A stretch of DNA of 64,000 nucleotides from a virus (taxonomy: Duplodnaviria > Caudoviricetes). Under the pieces are notes generated by a model that did not search any database, had not been told where the DNA came from, and worked only from the letters and a program-made list of their open reading frames with translations. This document shows, in pieces, positions 263 to 61,809 of this stretch. Both the position numbers and the translations under genes were made by a program. The stretch's first letter is position 1, and every line of letters begins with the position of its first letter. The DNA lies in the IMG/VR virus record IMGVR_UViG_3300029305_005484; one strand, 5' to 3'.

Positions 263-932
263 ATTCTGCTTTATCTTCTTGAATAAGATTAACAGTTTTT
301 GAGTCGTCAAGTTCAAATCTCTGTTCAAAATATTCTTCCATAATTCTGATAATAATATCGGAATCTAATCCGAGTTTTTCACATAACTCATTAAAGAGTT
401 TTGTTAAGTTATCAGAAAGAGCTTTTTGTCCACGTCTGATAGTACTTACTGATACTCCGAATTTCTCAGCAATTTCAGAAATGGAAATATTGCACAATAA
501 TGTGCAAGCTTCGATATCGAGTTTAATTGTTAATGCACGTTTAGAACGAGCTTCAATTTCATCGATAATCTTTTTGATAGATGCTGTCAAAACATGCTCA
601 ACAACTTCTTCAATAACGGATGGTTCTTCTTCCTCTACAGCATCAGTCTGATCTTCTTCAGATTCTTCTTCTGTAGCGTCAGTTTTATCTTCTTCAGGAA
701 GTGTTTCAATTTCACTAATTGATTCTTCATTTTCATTATTATCGTTTTCTTCTGTTCCCTCACATGGTTCAGATTCTTCAACGACATTATCTTTTTCATC
801 AGCCACTTCTTCCTCTGTAGCTGGAGTTTCAACAGTTTCTGGTTCTTTTACAACAGGTTCTTCTTTGACTTCTGTTGCACCAATACCAAAAATTGCTTTA
901 AAAAAATTGATAATCGCTTGTAAAATTTTCAT
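261..932 (-). CDS. Acidic protein with N-terminal amphipathic helix and C-terminal HTH
   Basis: MKILQAIINFFKAIFGIG N-terminus, Glu-rich linker, HTH-like SISEIAEKFGVSVSTIRRG; RBS AAAGGA. Confidence 0.65.
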   Translation of the reverse strand: MKILQAIINFFKAIFGIGATEVKEEPVVKEPETVETPATEEEVADEKDNVVEESEPCEGTEENDNNENEESISEIETLPEEDKTDATEEESEEDQTDAVEEEEPSVIEEVVEHVLTASIKKIIDEIEARSKRALTIKLDIEACTLLCNISISEIAEKFGVSVSTIRRGQKALSDNLTKLFNELCEKLGLDSDIIIRIMEEYFEQRFELDDSKTVNLIQEDKAE

Positions 933-10380: not shown

Positions 10381-13300
10381 TTATTGCATATGACAGAAAT
10401 TAAATAAATCAGTTCTCTGACCTTTAATTACTGCAAAATAATCATTCAAAAGACCTGTGTCTCTTGATGTAATCATGTATTTAACAGGGTCGAATTTTCT
10501 GAACATCTCTTTTATGGCTGGATCCATCAATCCAATGATATTTAGAATATCACCATCAAAATCTGCGTTAAGCCCTGGTAAAATGCTTAATGGAACTGAC
10601 ATTGTATAGCATTCATGATCAGGTTTTACATTTCTGATGTTCATAAGAATTATTGAATAATAATTTCAAAGTAATTTATTTACTTCTGACTATATCTTCA
10701 TAATATATTCTGTTACCAAATATATTATGCCCTCCATTTCCACATATTTCTATATGTACTCTACTCACTTCTTCATATAGATATTTCTTCTATATTATGC
10801 TTTCGATAGTCGATGAGCGTTCTTCTTATAATTAATTATTTTTTGTATTTTTTTATTTCTTGTTTTAGTTCTTTTGACATTTTACGTGCTTTTTTAATTG
10901 CAGTATTTTTATATAAATCAACAAGACGTTTTTGTTCTAATTTATTTGCTATGTATCTTTTAACTTTATCAGATATATATAATTCAAGTAAAATACTCAT
11001 ATTAATACCTCCTTTAGTTGTTATAATTAATATAAGAAACTTCGTTGCGGATTGTTACATCTTTACTCTTTTTACTATACCTTTGGAATTATCCATTGCC
11101 ACTAAGTATATTACTATCTTAGTTTAGTAAGTAAAGATTATGTAAGTTTCCCGCAGTTAAAAGGGTTTTACAACACCAATTGTGTTTAGCGTTGGATTTC
11201 TGTTAATAATACATGATGGTTGTTCATTCTTAATGATTAATTGCATAATACTATAAATTCTTGGATCAAAGTTATATCCTTCTTCCCAAATAGTATTAGC
11301 CTGGGCTAACGAAATATTATGTATTGTTTTAAGGTAGTAGATGATTTTAAGTTTAAACATCACATAAAAACAACTATAACCTAAATCTATTTCGTTATCT
11401 TTTAATGTCGGGTCTGGAATAATTACGTTTATTTATATTTATATAGATTCGTTATTTCTATACTGGTTTAAAACCACTCTATATCACTATAGAGATTAGA
11501 CTATATCTTCATCCTCTTCACTATTACCATGAAGTAGGAGCTCCCCATTTCGAACTCACTTGAGTTCTACTCTACTCATTTATTCTCCTAAGTCTTTCTC
11601 TTAAGATATACTTTCGATAGTCGTTGAACCTTATGCCTCTATACTTAGTGTCTATGTGTGTAATTATCAATATTATATAATTTAGATATTTCACACCAAG
11701 ATTCTTTATTAAGAATTTTATAAATCATAGAATACGATAAACCAACCATTTTTGAAATTTCTTTCAAAGAATACATATTTGATGCTAGTAATTTACATAT
11801 AGTATGAATTTTCTCTTCTCTTTCAGAAAGTTCTTTTTCGGTTTTACCGTACATATAATTAGAAAAATCATAATTTGATGTTATATGTTTCCATGATTCT
11901 CCATGTAAAATATGTCGTATCATATCATATGTAACACCAGTTTCATTAGAAATTTCTTTTATACTCTTTTCATTTTCAACAAGTAACTCACATACATGAA
12001 TTACCATATCTTCAGAAAATATATGATTTGTTATATTTTCACCATAACGTGTTTGTTTAAGATTATTAACTCTAGCATGATAATCATTTTCTTTAGTTGT
12101 GACCCATTCTAAATTCCATACACATGGATTATGTTTATCTCCATCTTTATGATTAACTTCTGGTTTATTATCAGGATTTGGAATAAATGTTATTGCCACA
12201 AGTCTATGTAATAAAAATGTCATTGGTTTATCATCTATCCATAAATCAAGTTGTAAATAATCTCGTTTATTTATTTTTAGAAATGAACTTTTGTTTTTAA
12301 TTCCTCTATAATTTAAACTTAAAACTCTTCCATATGTAGATATTAAATATGGATAATATTTTTCATTTAATTTAAGTTGCTTAAATTTTTCACGTTTTTG
12401 ATGTCTATATTTCAATCTATAAATATTTTTTATCTTTTTATTTAATTCTTTTTTACTAAGTTTATTATACATATTCCTCCTTTCTAGTATAAAGGCATCT
12501 TGGCTGCTGATTGTCTCATTGAGAGTTTCCAGCAATTAGAGGAGTATTTTGTATCATATTTCTATGATAGCACGCAACGTAATTTACGTGCAGTAAAGTT
12601 GAGTGAGCCTCCAATAAGTTGATCTCTTATTAATCCATCTTTTGTATTAAGAAGTTCAAAATTAAACTCCCAAATAGCATTTGCTTTAGATTGAATTCTA
12701 TTTAAGATAACTGGAGTTTCAATTTCAACCGAATCTCTTAAGTTTCTTGCTAAGTTTACAGCAGTATTTATGTCTTTATCAATCCCAGTGAAATAAAAGT
12801 TTTCTGCTGTTATTGATTGCTGACGTAATAACGTTGTATAAACTGGTATATGTGAAGTAAATACTTTAAGTCTTTCTTCACTAACTAAATCAAATGTCTT
12901 TGCTTTAGCTGGTTTCTTTCTTTTATAGTATGCAATGATTTCATCAAATCGCATTCTAAATTCTTCGATTCCAATACCACAGAAAGGACTTTTCGGTTCA
13001 AAGTCTTTAAGTTCATCTTCAGATAAATCGACTCTTCTCCCATCTCGATCGACTTTCTTTTTCATGAAAATGATTTCTTGGAATTCATCTTTTCCAATTG
13101 CTGATTGTAAAATTCTGTAGTAATGTGGGGCAATAATCTTTTTATTCCCTAATGGAATCCAGCCTGTCATACGAGGATCTACATCTCTAAATTCAATTTT
13201 AGTTCCACATTTAGGACATGTTTCTCCTTCGAATATGGTTCCTTTAAATTCGCCACATTTACATCTGTAGCGTTCTTGAAATGATTGCTCATCTGAATAT

Positions 13301-16275: not shown

Positions 16276-16480
16276 CTTCTTCACCTCCTTTAGTTGAATC
16301 AAAGTCTTTATAATAAGGGACACCATCTTTGATACCTTTATCAGTCAAAACTTTACTGATTTGATATCCAATGTATCCAACTACTCCTAAGATGATGTAA
16401 ACCCATGAATTCTTTTTTACGTGTTTACAAATTTTTGACCCTGTACTTTTTGCATTCATGATAAAATCTTTCATATTCAT
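16262..16480 (-). CDS. Small single-TM protein
   Basis: WVYIILGVVGYIGY; AAGGAG RBS. Confidence 0.7.
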   Translation of the reverse strand: MNMKDFIMNAKSTGSKICKHVKKNSWVYIILGVVGYIGYQISKVLTDKGIKDGVPYYKDFDSTKGGEEDESK

Positions 16481-16545
16481 AATCTCCTTTTAATGTAAAT
16501 TTTAGATGAGTATGGATTATATAAATTCCCATACTCATCTAATAA

Positions 16546-24566: not shown

Positions 24567-24695
24567 AACATTTCACCTCGCCTTCTTTTATATTTAGATA
24601 GGCAAATTCCATTTATTCTTAATCATATTATCTATATAATAATATATCAATAATTTTCCTATATTTTTACTATATTATTTACAAGTGAAGAGAGA

Positions 24696-24781
24696 GGGGA
24701 ACCAATTTTGTTAAGTTAACTTTCTCTAGTTATCGAGATTTTCCTTAGATTACAGAAAACTTACTTAACAAAACTGCAACC
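24696..24781 (+). repeat. 86-bp inverted-repeat element, copy 1
   Basis: GGGGAACCAATTTTGTTAAGT...ACTTAACAAAACTGCAACC; about 88-94% identical to three other copies, no indels. Confidence 0.95.
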
Positions 24782-26931: not shown

Positions 26932-27032
26932 TTTTTCTGATAATGACTTCATTTAATTTATAAACATTAAATTAAATTGAAGTTAGAAAATAACTTAAAT
27001 TAATTTATAAAAAGAAAGTGAGGAAATTTATA

Positions 27033-27782
27033 ATGGCATCAAAAAATGTTGTTATTAAACGTAAAATCGGGAACGATATTTATGAATTACTTCCAAAGAC
27101 AAGTGGAGCACAGGTAGAAGTATCTTATGCTGGTACTGTTCAGACACTTGCAGCTGCATTATCAACGATCTACACAGATGTTAACTCTTGGAATACTTTC
27201 AAGGCTGATGTTGATTTCGCTGGTACAGATAGCGCACTTGATACATTGAGAGAACTTATCGATATGATTAGCAAAGAAGATGTTGCTACATCTATCGCTG
27301 GTGAACTTAAAGCTATCAAAGAAAACATTGATCAGGTTGAAGCTGATTTGGCTGAATTACAGCAAACAGTTGCTGATAACAAGACATCTGCTGACAACAA
27401 CTACAATGCAAATAAGGCTCTTATCGAAGGTCTTCGTACAGACGTAGATGCTAACACAGCTCAGGTTGCTCTTAACAAAGCTGCACATGAGAAAAACGCT
27501 ACAGATATCACTGCTGTTGGTGGAAGAGTTGATACTCTTGAAACAGATAACACAGCAAATAAAGCTGCAATCGCTAAGAATGCTGAAGATATCATTGCTG
27601 TTGGTGGAAGAGTTACTACTCTTGAAACAGATAATACAGACAATAAAGCTGCAATCGCTGAAAACGCAGCTGCTATCTCAAGAATCAATGATATCGCTGG
27701 TGCTCAGGCTCGTGTAATCGTAGCTGAGGAAGTTCCTGAAGATTTGTCAGAACATGACTTATTCATGCAAATCGTTGAGTAA
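27033..27782 (+). CDS. Coiled-coil fibre/whisker protein
   Basis: YELLPKT, ALDTLREL, heptad repeats; late motif at 26963; start revised to ATG 27033. Confidence 0.7.
   Translation: MASKNVVIKRKIGNDIYELLPKTSGAQVEVSYAGTVQTLAAALSTIYTDVNSWNTFKADVDFAGTDSALDTLRELIDMISKEDVATSIAGELKAIKENIDQVEADLAELQQTVADNKTSADNNYNANKALIEGLRTDVDANTAQVALNKAAHEKNATDITAVGGRVDTLETDNTANKAAIAKNAEDIIAVGGRVTTLETDNTDNKAAIAENAAAISRINDIAGAQARVIVAEEVPEDLSEHDLFMQIVE
27495..27662 (+). repeat. Two tandem 84-bp (28-aa) coding repeats
   Basis: NATDITAVGGRVDTLETDNTANKAAIAK / NAEDIIAVGGRVTTLETDNTDNKAAIAE. Confidence 0.9.
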
Positions 27783-29038: not shown

Positions 29039-30784
29039 ATGAAAATAATGAGTAATAAGAATAAGGAGATAATTCAACATAAAAAAGAACATGATGTTTC
29101 TATTAAGTTGAAAAATATTACTAATTTTCAACAACTTAAATTAAAGAAAATTAACTTAAAACTTGAAATTTTTACATTAGATTCTATAGTTGCTTTTCTT
29201 TATAAAGATAGTGTCCTTAAAACACAAAAGTTGTTAAAGAATATTTATAAATTATTTAAAAATATAAATCCAGAACCATACATGTTAAATCCAGATTTAC
29301 GAACACGGTTCTGGGTAATTTTAAAATCTTTAGAATTAATGGTAGATAGTAGATTAGAATCTTATAATGCCATTAAATCTGAACTTATGGATGACAAAGA
29401 TTCAGATGAATTAATCCATGAGTATATCAAAAACATCAATGTACTCTATATAGGGTATGAAGATAGTAAAAAACTCATTAGAAAATTAGATGATAGATTA
29501 CGTTTTGGTTATGTAATAACTATTAAAGAAGTACTACAAGAATTTCTAAATGCAATTGAAGATGAAGAATATTCATCATATAAAGATATAGCAGATGATT
29601 TAGAACAACTTGCTATTTCAATTGTAAATATTAGAAGAAATACGAATAGTTTAGATAGTGAAGAAAAATTTTCATTAGATCCTGATAAATTTGATGATAT
29701 GATATCAGTCGCTGTAACCAAGTTACAAGATAGAATGAAAATTTTTAAAACAGGTATTCAAGGTTTAAATACTTTATTAGCACCTGGTTATTTATCTAAA
29801 CGTCTATATATGTATCTAGCATTTCCTGGTGGTGGTAAATCACAAATACTTTTAAAGTCAGCTTTAGACATTAAGAAATACAATGGACATGTTAAAGCGA
29901 AAGATCCTCAGAAGAGACCTGCAGTTTTATATATTACTATGGAAAATAGTGTTGAAGAAACTATTGAACGTATATTCAATATGACTGTATCTTCTGATGA
30001 TATTAGAAATTATACACCTGCTCAAATTATTAAGAAATTAAAGTCAGGTGGTAATTTAACACTTACAGATGATAATAATATAAATATTATCATCACTTAT
30101 TACCCGAACAGATCTATTGATACAAATGATTTATATGGAATTATTCAAGAATTAGATGATGAGGGTGATGAAGTTATAGCTTTAATTCTTGATTATGTAA
30201 AGAGAATAGCTCCTGCAGAAAAAGCATCTAGTGAAAAAGAAGAACTTAAGAATATTACAAATGAACTTAAGAATTTAGCAACTCACTTTGATATACCGGT
30301 TATAACAGCACAACAATTGAATCGTGTTGCATCATCTGTTGTAGATGCTGCATTACAAGCTAAAAAAGAAGATGTTACTAAACTTATCGGAAGAGATGGT
30401 GTTGCTGGTGCTTGGGAGATCATCGAAAATTCAGACTGGGTCTGTGTTTTAAATCAAGAAGTAAAAACAGAAACTTTAGAATTATTCATGACATTTAAAT
30501 TATTAAAACGAAGATATCGTTCTAGTGATGAAAATGAAAGAATGAGAAAATTAGAGTATTTTAATCAACCTTATGAACCAGGTAATGAAATTAGATTAAT
30601 GGATGATGTTGAATTGGATAGACCTCTTATGATTTACAGTATGAGTAACCAAATGAGTTCATTAGAAGATATGAAACGTGGTAAAAAGAATGCTGTAGAA
30701 AGAGAAGAAAAAATGCATAAAAATATTTATCAAATGATGGAATTTGATCCATTTGATGATACACAATCAATTCAATATACATAA
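29039..30784 (+). CDS. dnaB: Replicative SF4 (DnaB-like) helicase
   Basis: Walker A AFPGGGKS, YITMEN, ILDYV, PVITAQQLNR. Confidence 0.9.
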   Translation: MKIMSNKNKEIIQHKKEHDVSIKLKNITNFQQLKLKKINLKLEIFTLDSIVAFLYKDSVLKTQKLLKNIYKLFKNINPEPYMLNPDLRTRFWVILKSLELMVDSRLESYNAIKSELMDDKDSDELIHEYIKNINVLYIGYEDSKKLIRKLDDRLRFGYVITIKEVLQEFLNAIEDEEYSSYKDIADDLEQLAISIVNIRRNTNSLDSEEKFSLDPDKFDDMISVAVTKLQDRMKIFKTGIQGLNTLLAPGYLSKRLYMYLAFPGGGKSQILLKSALDIKKYNGHVKAKDPQKRPAVLYITMENSVEETIERIFNMTVSSDDIRNYTPAQIIKKLKSGGNLTLTDDNNINIIITYYPNRSIDTNDLYGIIQELDDEGDEVIALILDYVKRIAPAEKASSEKEELKNITNELKNLATHFDIPVITAQQLNRVASSVVDAALQAKKEDVTKLIGRDGVAGAWEIIENSDWVCVLNQEVKTETLELFMTFKLLKRRYRSSDENERMRKLEYFNQPYEPGNEIRLMDDVELDRPLMIYSMSNQMSSLEDMKRGKKNAVEREEKMHKNIYQMMEFDPFDDTQSIQYT

Positions 30785-39180: not shown

Positions 39181-39767
39181 TGACAATTTATCTATTTTAT
39201 TTTAAAGATAATGATGACAATAGAGAGTTAGAACCTTATCTATATGCATATACTACAAGTAAATTATTAGCAAATAGATTTATGGATTTTAGAGATATGG
39301 ATAAATTCAAACTTGTTAAGAGAGAAATTAGTGATAAAAATTACAGTGATTTCTCAAGGCAATATCCAACTCAACAATTGACAACAACTAGATTTTTAAC
39401 AAAACCAGATAAAGATACAATAGGAAAATCGTATGTGGAAATTGTATGTACATGGGATGAAGAAAAGAATTCTATTATAAATAGTGATGATACAGTATTC
39501 ACTATGTTTAGAGATAAGATGTTTAATCCAAGATACTTGTCACTAGACTTAAAAATTGATTTATGTAAATTAGGATTCTTTACAATATACCAATATTTAT
39601 ATCAACAAATGTACATATATGAACCTCTATCAGATCCTGAATTTTCTGGTGTGTTTAATCCTGATATAATTGCAGGTGATACAATGAGACCACTTCCACA
39701 TAATCTCAAGACAGACCAGTTTGAGATGTTCATGTATTTGTATAATGGTACTATAAAAGAAAAATAA
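39177..39767 (+). CDS. Hypothetical protein, paralog of 19159-19605
   Basis: LYAYTTSKLLANRFMDFRDMDKF. Confidence 0.75.
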   Translation: MMTIYLFYFKDNDDNRELEPYLYAYTTSKLLANRFMDFRDMDKFKLVKREISDKNYSDFSRQYPTQQLTTTRFLTKPDKDTIGKSYVEIVCTWDEEKNSIINSDDTVFTMFRDKMFNPRYLSLDLKIDLCKLGFFTIYQYLYQQMYIYEPLSDPEFSGVFNPDIIAGDTMRPLPHNLKTDQFEMFMYLYNGTIKEK

Positions 39768-39816
39768 AGAATGATGTTAATTCATCATTCTTTATTTTTT
39801 ATATATTTAATAAAAG

Positions 39817-40203
39817 TTATTCAGTTCTTTCCCAGATATATACTGCTTTATATGGAGGCATATTATTATGTGGTTGATTTCCTCCTGTACCTGTTGAATA
39901 TTCGACATTATCAACTGCTTTATTTGAATTCGCTGTCCAAGAACCACCTGTTTCAGCTGATATCCAGTTCACACCCCAGTTCATTGTAAGAGCATGATTA
40001 TGAAGAGGCATTTCATTTACAGTTAATGTATGACTTGCTTCACCACCAATACTATTAACATCATAAGAGCCACCAGCACCAAGTAAAAATCTATCATCAA
40101 TTCTTATCCAAGTTATACCACCATATTCTTCAATAACCTTTTCCATAGTATCTAATGTTGTAGAGTGTATAACCATACCAACATGTGATCGGTTGCAGTT
40201 TTG
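39817..40203 (-). other. Tail-fibre/baseplate-tip cassette 2 (128 codons)
   Basis: QNCNRSHVGMVIHST...GGITWIRIDDRFLLGAG...GGEASHTLTVNEMPLHNH...TGGNQPHNNMPPYKAVYIWERTE*; domain pattern begins before the in-frame Met, no clear RBS. Confidence 0.8.
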
Positions 40204-40276
40204 TTAAGTAAGTTTTCTGTAATCAAAGGAAATTACCGATAACTAGAGAAATTTAACTTAACAAAATTGGTTCCCC
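40191..40276 (-). repeat. 86-bp inverted-repeat element, copy 2
   Basis: 5 differences from copy 1. Confidence 0.95.
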
Positions 40277-40292
40277 AATAATTTTAATTATA

Positions 40293-40565
40293 TTAAGAAT
40301 CTATCTTTCCTTGTATTAGAATAAATTCTGCAGGATCATTAGAATTCCATACACTATCAAAATGTAAAACATATACTTCTTTTGTTTCATTAGTATGTTC
40401 TCTAGTTATACCTCTACATATCCAATGTGCATTAGAATAGCATATTGCAGCTAATAATGCATAACCATCTCTAATAGTTTGATATACATAATTTGCTCCA
40501 ATACCATCTAAAGTTACTTTATCTATATAAAATCTTTCTTGATTAGTTTGTTGGTTGCAGTTTTG
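40293..40565 (-). other. Start-less cassette 3 (90 codons, beta-rich)
   Basis: QNCNQQTNQERFYIDKVTLDG...DGYALLAAIC...AEFILIQGKIDS*; no Met; stops 16 bp before copy 2. Confidence 0.7.
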
Positions 40566-40638
40566 TTAAGTAAGATTTCTGTAATCTTCGTAAATTACCG
40601 ATAACTAGAGAAAGTTAACTTAACAAAATTGGTTCCTC
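40553..40638 (-). repeat. 86-bp inverted-repeat element, copy 3
   Basis: 8 differences from copy 1. Confidence 0.95.
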
Positions 40639-40660: not shown

Positions 40661-40699
40661 AAATAAAGAGAAGTGATGCAGACACTTCTCTTTATTTTC
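40661..40699. terminator. Terminator hairpin directly upstream of cassette pair
   Basis: AAATAAAGAGAAGTG / CACTTCTCTTTATTT. Confidence 0.8.
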
Positions 40700-55585: not shown

Positions 55586-57691
55586 TTAATAATTTCCTCT
55601 TGTAATCACTAATTGATTTCCTGTTGTTAATAAACTTACTAAGTCTGATGATGCAATTAAGATTTCTCTATCTGTAGCAGCACTATTAATTACTCTTCTA
55701 TTGAAAGCGATTGTAGGTACTGTACTTTCACTCATATCCAAATCAAGAGTTGTACCTGAATACAACTCAATCTCATTGATAAGTGTGAATAAATCAGTTT
55801 CTGGATTATCACGATATGTGACTTTCAGATAACTCATGAAATCATTAATATATGAAATGTCTTCTTGGAAAATTACTCGAACTCCAATGTTTTCGGAAAT
55901 ACATCCAAGAATATCACCCATTACATCTTCACTAGAAGTGTATAAATTTTCTTTAGCAATGATATTTGACAAGTCGATTTTCTTATTACTAAATCCGTTT
56001 TCAAGAACACAAAATCTCACATGTCTAAATGCTTTAAACATAACTTCCAGTAAGAATTTATCTGCATCTGATCTTTCAGGACAATCTATCTCATCCCTAA
56101 TAGCGTTTAATAAAGTGGTATGTCCACCATTGATAACACCATTTCTGTATGCAGACAAAGCTGCTTTTACAGCATCATCCATAGCATCAACTAAGAATTG
56201 CTGTTTGAAATCTGTTGATGCACCAACTTCGATTTGTCCCATTTTAAGTTTCAAACTTAGATATCTCTTTTGAGCATCATCTACTTCAAAGTTAAATGTA
56301 CCAAGTTTGCTGTACTTTTCGATAACAGCATCAAGTTCAACTTTAGCATCGTTTACATATTTCTCATACAATGATTCATCATAATCAAAATCTCTAAAGA
56401 TAGATTCTTTATCATAATGAAGCATAACTTCACCGGTATATCCGATTCTGAATGAGAATTCTTCATCAAGAGGAACAACTCCAATTTCACCAGCATCTGC
56501 ATTTTTTAATACATATGGAACTTGTGCATGGGAGTTAGAATTTTTAGCCATAATCATATTACCTTCAATTTTTCGGTTATCAAGATTGATATACTGAAGA
56601 AGGTTTGATACATCTGATTTAGTATCAACAAGGTCTTTCGTTCTCTTAATGATTTCATATTCAATAGACTGAGTTATAAGTTGTGTATTACAAAGCATTG
56701 CCAAGTCACTAACACGTTTCTTATCTGAATTACGAGAATTTCTATATCCCATAATTACAAGATTGATATCTTTTGTCTGTCTATATTCAGAATTTAAATC
56801 ATTAAGAATGTCACCTTGAAGTGTTACCTCATCATAATTAGGTGCAATACAAATAAGTTTTCTTCCTCTCATCTTGCATAAAACTGAAAGAGGTGCCAAA
56901 ATATATTTGTATGAATTAAGGCTAACTTTATGATCAAATATAACAACATCACATTTTTGTGCATGTAATGATTGGTTGTCATTATTTACATAGATTCTGT
57001 CCATAAGTTTTGCATGGAACATGAATCCGTCAACAACTCTTCCTTTTGTCACACCATCTGCAGCTTTAACTACACTAATTGCTGGATATCCAATTTGTCT
57101 GTATAAATCAACAATTATGTCTGTAAGTTCTTTATCTGCATTTGATGATACATATACTACTTGTCTTATATATTCACACATTTCTTCAAGAGGTAAACTC
57201 TTAATATCTGTGGCATATAAACTAAGACGTTTATTAACATCTTCAACAAGTTCTTTTGTTCGATTAAGAACGTTTCTAGGTAAGAAAAATAACTTATTAA
57301 TCTTATCTGAATTTTTCTTAAATTCTTGATACATTGCATTTGCAGAAACTACAGCACTAGTAGTTCCATCACCTACTGCAAAATTAAGTCTTCCACAGAT
57401 ATCTGCAATCATTCCGGAAATGACTTGGTCAACGTATCCATATTGTGAATTGTAACGAATATTTTTCATGATAGTAAAACCATCTTTCGTTACATGGTAA
57501 CCAGGTGGTTGTGAAATAATAGCATGTGCACCAACTGGTCCTAAAGATTTTTGTAATGTACTAGCTATCTGGTCAAACACAGATGAAATTCTAGAATCCA
57601 TTACATCCTTTGATATGACATTAATCTCTGGGTCAAATGCTACAATAGACTGAGCAAATGTCATATCTTTTTTCTTTTTACCTTTTGACAT
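55586..57691 (-). CDS. groEL: Phage GroEL-like chaperonin
   Basis: SLGPVG, VTKDGFTI, VGDGTTS, DAMDDAVKA, GVINGG. Confidence 0.92.
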   Translation of the reverse strand: MSKGKKKKDMTFAQSIVAFDPEINVISKDVMDSRISSVFDQIASTLQKSLGPVGAHAIISQPPGYHVTKDGFTIMKNIRYNSQYGYVDQVISGMIADICGRLNFAVGDGTTSAVVSANAMYQEFKKNSDKINKLFFLPRNVLNRTKELVEDVNKRLSLYATDIKSLPLEEMCEYIRQVVYVSSNADKELTDIIVDLYRQIGYPAISVVKAADGVTKGRVVDGFMFHAKLMDRIYVNNDNQSLHAQKCDVVIFDHKVSLNSYKYILAPLSVLCKMRGRKLICIAPNYDEVTLQGDILNDLNSEYRQTKDINLVIMGYRNSRNSDKKRVSDLAMLCNTQLITQSIEYEIIKRTKDLVDTKSDVSNLLQYINLDNRKIEGNMIMAKNSNSHAQVPYVLKNADAGEIGVVPLDEEFSFRIGYTGEVMLHYDKESIFRDFDYDESLYEKYVNDAKVELDAVIEKYSKLGTFNFEVDDAQKRYLSLKLKMGQIEVGASTDFKQQFLVDAMDDAVKAALSAYRNGVINGGHTTLLNAIRDEIDCPERSDADKFLLEVMFKAFRHVRFCVLENGFSNKKIDLSNIIAKENLYTSSEDVMGDILGCISENIGVRVIFQEDISYINDFMSYLKVTYRDNPETDLFTLINEIELYSGTTLDLDMSESTVPTIAFNRRVINSAATDREILIASSDLVSLLTTGNQLVITRGNY

Positions 57692-61361: not shown

Positions 61362-61736
61362 CTAACTATTTGAAATATATGTACAGTCATATGTAAATAA
61401 TACATACTTCTCCCCTATGTCAAGACCCAAAGATATAATATTATATGTTCTATCATAAGATACATGTGTAGGGTATACATCTCCTGTAGTTGTATCACAA
61501 ACAAGAAGTGTTCCAAATTGACTAGATAAATGAGTGTTAATTGGATGCCATGGTAATGCTAGAATAGATGTTCCTTTAGCTCTAGCTGATAACCAACCTC
61601 TAACTTTTACAGTACAAACTCTTCCATATTTATAGCAAACACTTTCCCCTATAGTACAATTCCATGCTGTACAATTTCCACTAACAACTTCTAAGTTTGG
61701 AATTTTTCCTTCTAATTCTTCTTGATTGCAGTTTTG
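61362..61736 (-). other. Start-less tail-fibre-tip cassette 4 (124 codons)
   Basis: QNCNQEELEGKIP...CYKYGRVCTVKVRG...ILALPWHP...FTYDCTYISNS*; no Met; Y-K-x-G-x-V...LP-x-x-P pattern of fibre head domains. Confidence 0.75.
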
Positions 61737-61809
61737 TTAAGTAAGATTTCTGTAATCAAAGGAAATTATCGATAGATAGAGAAAGTTAACTTAACAAAAT
61801 TGGTTCACC
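61724..61809 (-). repeat. 86-bp inverted-repeat element, copy 4
   Basis: GGTGAACCAATTTTGTTAAGT...ACTTAACAAAACTGCAATC on minus strand. Confidence 0.95.

Follow-up and report, generated by a model that had tools for sequence, protein, structure and literature searches.

The stretch of DNA analysed here (the window, 64,000 nt) belongs to a 275,512-bp record of a gut phage with direct terminal repeats and ∼28% G+C, and contains four copies of an 86-bp element (Table 1). In the first of these, TTTTGTTAAGT (24706-24716) and ACTTAACAAAA (24763-24773) form a perfect inverted pair of 11-bp arms with a spacing of 46 bp, and TTTCT (24721-24725) and AGAAA (24754-24758) lie 4 nt inward of them; the window has four occurrences of the arm-gap-arm pattern, and 100 dinucleotide-preserving shuffles have none. 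By Hamming scan we found 35 copies in the whole genome, each exactly 86 bp long without a single indel, with 0-14 mismatches (84-100% identity), 13 on one strand and 22 on the other. They span ∼190 kb (genome 29.5-220 kb) in both orientations, frequently as direct tandem pairs 362-721 bp apart, and 86-mers identical to the first copy are present at genome 112177 and 155055. Element positions 4-14, 16-24 and 65-84 are invariant across the 35 copies, position 15 is the same in 34 of them, and the invariance stops exactly at positions 4 and 84, the outer edges of the segments that we term the L and R cores. Variation is concentrated at positions 34-55, plus 25 and 64, and the 22-nt centre of the filler exists as few alleles, which are common to unrelated cassettes. 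The initial annotation had described the arms with their inner TTTCT/AGAAA pair, an invariant length, differences that fall mostly in the centre and several stops in the cassette frame, and all of this agrees with the 35 copies, in which the stops are TAA at 17-19, TAG at 32-34 (21 of the 35) and TAA at 71-73. The conserved tail CTGCAAY-C, said to vary only between C and T, does so at position 85 (30 C, 5 T), but position 86 is C in 33 of the 35 copies, and a weaker GTTATC/GATTAC pair that had also been proposed is not kept among them.

The left outer flank of the element (positions -6 to 4; 24690-24699 in the first copy) is strongly G/purine-rich in all 35 copies; it resembles a ribosome-binding site, yet there is no open reading frame (ORF) for it to serve. 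Exact and degenerate searches of IMG/VR for the element, with near relatives left out, gave no matches. One isolated perfect arm TTTTGTTAAGT, at window 399-409 (genome 90926-90936) within a minus-strand ORF (261-932), was set aside as probably due to chance, its flank matching neither core and no partner arm being present; the expectation for an isolated 11-bp arm in an AT-rich genome of 275,512 bp is roughly 0.1-0.3.

Directly 3′ of each of the 35 copies, always in one fixed frame, lies a start-less ORF of 90-276 codons, which opens just after the TAA of the right arm, begins Q-N-C-N and lacks a conserved start codon; upstream of the 35 copies there is no ORF longer than 51 codons in any frame. 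We call these ORFs silent tip cassettes. Apart from the second cassette of the window, most have no Pfam match, and they rarely resemble one another. Terminator-like hairpins numbered three, as against 0.3 expected. Elsewhere in the window are genes for a Cpn60/TCP-1-like chaperonin (55586-57691, minus strand) and a divergent DnaB-like helicase (29039-30784, plus strand), and eight other large ORFs of the window gave no Pfam match. The ORF at 27018-27782 contains two tandem 84-bp coding repeats of 81% identity (27474-27641), and another dispersed repeat family (160-270 bp, 75-87% identity) has a copy at window 11477-11632 and genome copies at 16349-16519, 150517-150682, 175322-175583, 237477-237695 and 268865-269037.

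Table 1. Features of the 86-bp elements and their cassettes, in window coordinates.
Feature	Position	Strand	Basis or remark
Element copy 1 (86-bp double site)	24696-24781	+	Pattern and Hamming scan
L core, invariant G + AACCAA (element positions 4-10), outside left arm	24699-24705	+	35/35; putative L-site crossover region
Left conserved arm TTTTGTTAAGT (element positions 11-21)	24706-24716	+	34/35 identical; putative recombinase-binding half-site
46-bp filler ("stuffer")	24717-24762	+	Replaced at expression locus by promoter region and constant module
Symmetric boxes of filler, TTTCTCTA and TACAGAAA	24721-24728 and 24751-24758	+	Surround variable 22-nt centre (24729-24750)
Right conserved arm ACTTAACAAAA (element positions 68-78)	24763-24773	+	Invariant, 35/35
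AAACTGCAACC (11 nt, element positions 76-86, contains R core; N-C-N)	24771-24781	+	Common to tail-fibre gene
R core CTGCAA (element positions 79-84)	24774-24779	+	Invariant, 35/35; position 85 is first variable base; putative R-site crossover region
Silent tip cassette 1, 123 codons, open from right-arm TAA, no usable start codon	24769-25140	+	
Second terminator-like hairpin, downstream of two-cassette mini-array	39760-39799		
Silent tip cassette 2, 128 codons, Gp10_C-type tail-fibre/baseplate tip domain	39817-40203	-	PF21939, 37.1 bits (cut-off 27)
Element copy 2	40191-40276	-	Pattern and Hamming scan
Silent tip cassette 3, 90 codons	40293-40565	-	
Element copy 3, tandem with copy 2 (362 bp start to start)	40553-40638	-	Pattern and Hamming scan
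Terminator-like hairpin, upstream of two-cassette mini-array	40661-40697	-	
Silent tip cassette 4, 124 codons, no Met	61362-61736	-	
Element copy 4	61724-61809	-	Pattern and Hamming scan

A six-frame search for N-C-N within long ORFs located the single ordinary tail-fibre gene of the genome, which lies outside the window at genome 186101-187528 (L007:43-1470, product P0001) and has a normal ribosome-binding site and an ATG. Its DNA at residue 376 reads GAGCTAAACTGCAACCTG, of which exactly AAACTGCAACC is common with element positions 76-86, and a 100-residue tip follows; on the constant side of this R site, the conserved arm is matched at just 6 of 11 positions. The sole partial copy of the element in the genome (185926) comprises positions 1-26 with one mismatch and lies ∼160 bp upstream of the tail-fibre start. 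We considered that it might be an expression copy, that is, an element with a half-site, and rejected this because it is the left boundary of the tail-fibre module: the upstream region and constant part of the gene (genome 185926-187236) carry both sites at their ends. Judged by its sequence, the tail-fibre locus looks like an element in which the filler (∼27-75) has been swapped for 1.3 kb of upstream region and constant coding part. A second direct copy of the arm, TTTTGTTAAGTAAAAT, is present at genome 185960-185970, 28 bp past the left half-site; it is kept in the two rearranged loci described below (L033 and L040) and may be an accessory recombinase-binding or regulatory site.

Related assemblies join the same constant part to other tips, in frame and at the level of DNA. 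The constant part of P0003 is 96% identical to that of P0001, and after E-L-N-C-N it runs into the tip of silent cassette c185502 at 99% identity; the order at this locus (L033) is the upstream flank of c185502, element positions 1-21, the tail-fibre upstream region and constant part, the 11-nt site and the c185502 tip. Because flank and tip are both from c185502, the module sits exactly in place of that element's filler. In L040, part of an 88-kb contig, the module is bordered by the L half of c143220 on one side and by the R core and tip of c142750 on the other, oriented as these two elements are, with both flanks collinear with the 275,512-bp genome. P0002 carries still another tip on the constant part, and the contigs bearing P0001 itself are collinear with the genome. 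Two breakpoints were mapped in L033 and L040 alike, with 11 nt common at the R junction and 26 nt at the L junction; since the flank to the left of element positions 1-26 differs among genomes, the L crossover falls between about position 4 and position 26. Logan contigs break at the elements, and joints there are short-sided. Junctions of 11 and 26 nt are too short and cannot be assembly artefacts, whereas the join in L033 that crosses a whole 86-bp repeat could be one. Reciprocal products, with a filler attached to the displaced tip, were not observed, as the contigs stop short of them. The sequencing runs with element sequence, all of them represented by Logan contigs, are of animal gut or faeces DNA and include no RNA run, and one contig in a mouse gut run (X10) covers exactly the module, from L boundary to R site. 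In an X10 contig, 67 other letters stand in place of the cassette that follows the tail-fibre gene (element c187563 and its tip; L054:13629-14114, genome 187528-188013), and thus cassette content varies among strains.

The same architecture is found in a second lineage. The elements of phages L059 and L060, in which the recombinase has 70-77% identity, are homologous and give a gapless alignment, the arms being TTTAGCAAAAT and ACTTTGATAAA in L059 and TTTAGTTAAGT and AGTTAGCTAAA in L060. The left cores are GATTGAA and GATGAAA and the right cores TAGTAAC and TAGTAGC (TAGTARC), reading Asn-Ser-Asn, in agreement with the "T-L-N-S-N" junction of the tail fibres P0004-P0008. In L064, which is of the L060 type, the order is element, tip, left half-site, conserved upstream region, constant part, TTAAATAGTAAC and tip, and this tail-fibre tip is homologous to a silent cassette of L060; the left stretch of element homology extends to position 23, and the right one starts at position 75. 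That the boundaries agree between lineages despite sequence divergence is the strongest evidence for regarding both edges as functional crossover regions. Among more distant relatives, no element was found within 10 kb of the recombinase gene (L061-L063), and the arms are absent from the tail-fibre loci L055, L057 and L058. Two genes downstream of the tail-fibre relative in L058 (57% identity) there is a reverse transcriptase gene (RVT_1, L058:9266-10414), which may represent a diversity-generating retroelement in place of the cassette system. The related phage L061 has an anaerobic ribonucleotide reductase gene, NrdD, with an intein that contains a LAGLIDADG endonuclease (L061:3945-7247).

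Five Pfam families were searched in the genome, and the only recombinase is a single tyrosine recombinase (PF00589, 128 bits); no match was obtained for PF00239 serine recombinases, PF01797 Y1 HUH transposases, PF01548 IS110-type transposases or PF00078 reverse transcriptases, so that of the enzymes to be looked for according to the initial annotation the tyrosine recombinase was found and the serine recombinase, Y1 HUH nuclease and reverse transcriptase were not. The gene is intact and lies at genome 202.1-203.2 kb (L053:991-2016), at a distance of 15 kb from the tail-fibre gene; related phages have it in a syntenic position. Its 341-residue product is Xer-like (NF040815, 239 bits, above the cut-off), contains all of the catalytic residues R-K-H-R-H-Y when aligned to XerD (1a0p), and is 50-58% identical to chromosomal Xer-like proteins of Clostridia; against the integron-integrase models it scores 91.9 bits (TIGR02249, cut-off 265) and 52 bits (NF011946, cut-off 435). 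We infer that this protein is the enzyme acting on the sites. As it is conserved in relatives with no element within 10 kb, it may have another role.

We propose that the element is probably a composite DNA recombination site, made up of two asymmetric tyrosine-recombinase sites back to back, and that exchange at L and R relocates the expression module. Each half is best read from its outer end inward: first an outer arm of variable sequence, then a 6-nt core that does not vary (AACCAA in L, CTGCAA in R) and finally a conserved 11-bp arm, with both halves facing outward, and the crossovers would fall outside the arms, at positions 4-26 for L and 76-86 for R. Among the three readings that had been offered for the element at the outset, a two-armed protein-binding recombination site is the best supported, with breakpoints just outside the arms, conserved arms and cores, no compensatory change within the genome and an intact Xer-like recombinase. 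Exchange of R with R would join the constant part in frame (Asn-Cys-Asn) to the tip behind any element, and with an inverted element it would also invert the DNA between, which L with L exchange would then invert back; the L exchange would shift the left boundary of the expression module. The net outcome of both would be that the 1.3-kb promoter-plus-constant module trades places with a filler while collinearity is preserved in the remainder of the genome. Exactly two such inversions turn the genome into the L040 arrangement, and L033 requires three. Tyrosine recombination requires core homology between partner sites; because the L and R cores differ, L should recombine with L only and R with R only, and the two should therefore be heterospecific. 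The stable tandem direct copies and the orientation in L040 agree with recombination between inverted sites only, and the persistence of the direct copies suggests, by analogy with Rci, that deletion is disfavoured. We infer a core length of 6 nt, recombination by inversion only and a coupling of the two exchanges. The switching of the tail-fibre tip probably changes what the phage binds. As a broader and more tentative proposal, to which we would give somewhat less than even weight, one could envision a natural form of recombinase-mediated cassette exchange, in which a 1.3-kb module between heterospecific Xer-type sites hops among at least 35 docks, each hop activating another receptor-binding tip, and in which the 86-bp dyad dock, possibly as an extruded cruciform, couples the exchanges.

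Alternatively, the same DNA switch might use the element as a folded substrate, either a single strand or an extruded cruciform hairpin recognised by the recombinase, which would exchange with an unfolded tail-fibre site. Precedents for folded substrates are integron attC and the folded attP of CTX phage, used by XerCD, and the tail-fibre R partner without a good arm would correspond to attI, which is without the attC fold. The invariant length of the element is consistent with such a role. Three lineages retain a dyad symmetry that spans the element from end to end, and between them two-sided, symmetry-keeping changes are seen at five pairs (14-75, 16-73, 17-72, 34-55 and 35-54), and the L059 and L060 elements, whose centres are perfect palindromes of 13-14 bp, fold well as single-stranded DNA (-14.4 and -17.6 kcal/mol; z -4.1 and -5.4, respectively). 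The first copy in the window, however, folds weakly (-9.9 kcal/mol, z about -2), with only the arms pairing in the centroid, and among the 32 copies, out of 35, that entered the alignment, 18 of 27 symmetric pairs never vary, the variable pairs break pairing, and 88.9% of cells are paired as compared to 88.8% in shuffles. Moreover, two half-sites bound by one co-evolving protein would give the same double changes between lineages, and quasi-palindrome template switching could also be their source. The fold leaves the cores unpaired, the order of the boxes (GTTAAGT...ACTTAAC) is the reverse of that in attC, and the recombinase scores 92 bits against an integron-integrase cut-off of 265. A covariance analysis had been suggested as the means of telling the two apart, and with no compensatory change within the genome (32 copies) and strictly conserved arms and cores its outcome there leans towards protein binding; of the earlier suggestion of folded single-stranded DNA of the attC or REP kind, what stands is that double changes keep the dyad symmetry between lineages, whereas an IntI and the attC box order, variable length and 3′ position are lacking. 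The balance of evidence favours a protein-bound double site over a folded or cruciform role, which we regard as unlikely; on the double-site reading, the ability to form a hairpin would follow mainly from the presence of a single protein-binding arm in two inverted copies.

Certain observations do not sit easily with the double-site reading. Outer and inner arms do not form palindromic pairs, and the model gives no account of the G-rich left flank, the conserved TTTCTCTA boxes or the fixed spacing; the fixed 46-bp spacing, together with the dyad symmetry between lineages, hints at a structural role beyond what recombination would need. The fixed geometry of the element makes the choice between a double-stranded site and folded DNA directly testable. 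A "collapsed core" variant, in which the arms would surround TAAC|ACTT once the filler is extruded, was rejected because the R breakpoint falls within positions 76-86.

Exchange without a dedicated enzyme, by homologous recombination or replication template switching among the dispersed 86-bp repeats, could draw on the fact that large phages recombine actively, on the 84-100% identity of the repeats and on filler alleles that are common to unrelated cassettes. It is nonetheless decidedly improbable: the productive junction has just 11 nt in common with the elements and its position is equal in two lineages of differing sequence, arms and cores are near-invariant while neighbouring tips seldom resemble each other, and direct tandem copies persist at distances of 362-721 bp, where unrestrained homologous recombination would remove them. 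Still less probable is an element acting on RNA or translation, with the cassettes expressed in place through a hairpin-bridged ribosome-binding site, bypass from a mini-ORF (TTG-TTA-AGT-TAA), trans-splicing or RNase III-type processing. The G-rich, Shine-Dalgarno-like run ending at position 4, the TTG at 13-15, the recurrence of AACCAA in frame 78 nt apart and the open cassette ORFs would be in keeping with it, but in none of the three frames is there a matching pair of take-off and landing codons that leads into the ORF frame, and most copies have no upstream start codon in that frame, on which grounds translational bypass and a split ribosome-binding site were rejected. Likewise, tmRNA-like resumption was rejected because ARAGORN detected neither a tRNA nor a tmRNA gene, whether in the window or in the whole genome, and an intron, ribozyme or known structured RNA because no Rfam family exceeded its threshold, the best match being a generic miRNA hairpin (25.7 bits against 63). 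The initial suggestion of an RNA hairpin directing trans-splicing or reverse transcriptase template switching fails in particular, since the in-frame fusions are DNA in several assemblies, where they account fully for expression, and the genome gave no match for a reverse transcriptase. An ordinary MITE or selfish palindromic repeat, to which inverted terminal arms, many copies and an AACCAA on both sides resembling a target duplication might point, has a negligible probability, given that the supposed duplication is asymmetric (CTGC intervenes) and invariant, that no transposase of the searched families is present, and that 35 of 35 copies lie in one register before a start-less ORF and none in the random context that was named beforehand as the mark of a MITE.

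Each half of the composite site matches in its layout the sites of a known system, the shufflon. The sfx sites of Rci are asymmetric, with a conserved arm, a short conserved core and a variable arm (PMC11852207). As in the R64 shufflon, a tyrosine recombinase (here PF00589, 128 bits) is encoded by the same genome, the sites are asymmetric (positions 4-21 and 68-84 are invariant except 15, which is the same in 34 of 35, and the outer flanks vary), and one adhesin-like gene exchanges its start-less C-terminal segments in frame, as seen in P0003/L033, L040, P0002 and in L064 as compared to L060. R64, however, has a compact block of four segments beside rci and a single type of site, whereas the phage has 35 cassettes over ∼190 kb in both orientations (copies at 29.5-220 kb rather than one contiguous invertible cluster beside the recombinase gene), paired sites with two cores, a moving promoter-plus-constant module and an Xer-like enzyme. 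The system works like a shufflon to which paired heterospecific sites and a mobile expression module have been added. The Rin shufflon of Bifidobacterium prophages, for which inversions are known from comparative and read evidence, uses an XerD-like armless tyrosine recombinase (Mavrich et al. 2018, PMC6109161). It is likewise phage-encoded, with an 11-bp repeat upstream of each variable receptor-binding C-terminus (95-100 residues in Rin), but it comprises five variable segments at one locus flanked by rin and the constant gene, and has a single 11-bp site, TTCCCTAACCC, without paired sites, filler or a dyad-symmetric element (PMC6109161).

The sites themselves recall dif, with its dimensions of 11 + 6 + 11 and XerD arms TTATGTTAAAT in E. 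coli and TTATGTTAAGT in Rhodoferax (PMC2731167). The left arm TTTTGTTAAGT is identical to the former at 9 of 11 positions and to the latter at 10 of 11, and in dif, too, the core borders the arm on this side. However, dif has two related arms around one core, which in dif-type Xer sites spans 6-8 bp, and functions in dimer resolution, whereas the phage element, with gene-fusion switching as its proposed function, has one conserved arm per core in two half-conserved sites that face outward from a filler; in each half a single dif-like arm (9/11) adjoins a 6-nt core that never varies, and the second arm is neither conserved nor a palindromic partner. For a comparable movement of segments, the cited accounts of Acinetobacter pdif modules describe segments bounded by Xer sites that move between replicons (PMC12907356, PMC9947245).

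Integron attC x attI recombination is similar in that its cassettes lack promoters and each carries an imperfect palindrome, conserved at the ends and variable in the middle; it likewise relies on a tyrosine recombinase, and one of the partner sites is simple. The length of attC varies from 57 to 141 bp, and attC follows its ORF and has the box order RYYYAAC...GTTRRRY, whereas the phage element is always 86 bp, lies 5′ of a start-less ORF and reads GTTAAGT...ACTTAAC. No IntI is encoded (TIGR02249 91.9 against 265; NF011946 52 against 435), the box order, variable length and site 3′ of the ORF that characterise attC are absent, and as to a folded strand there is no covariation within the genome but symmetry-keeping double changes between three lineages. 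In engineered recombinase-mediated cassette exchange, heterospecific lox or FRT pairs flank a segment, and a double exchange swaps segments with nothing else changed; this is a laboratory design, and the likeness lies in two sites with different cores flanking a segment. To our knowledge, no natural phage cassette exchange with 35 docking sites has been described to date. If the proposed exchange is correct, the phage would hold a library of ∼35 receptor-binding tips from which one is chosen by site-specific DNA exchange across most of the genome, offering a model, open to test, of the way in which giant gut phages deal with variation of host surfaces, and the site pair and its recombinase would constitute a compact natural orthogonal set for multiplex cassette exchange. 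The number of alternatives would exceed that of the Gin, Cin, Min or Rin systems by an order of magnitude, and the layout would be unlike theirs, with paired sites that have different cores and a mobile expression module in contrast to a fixed expression site.
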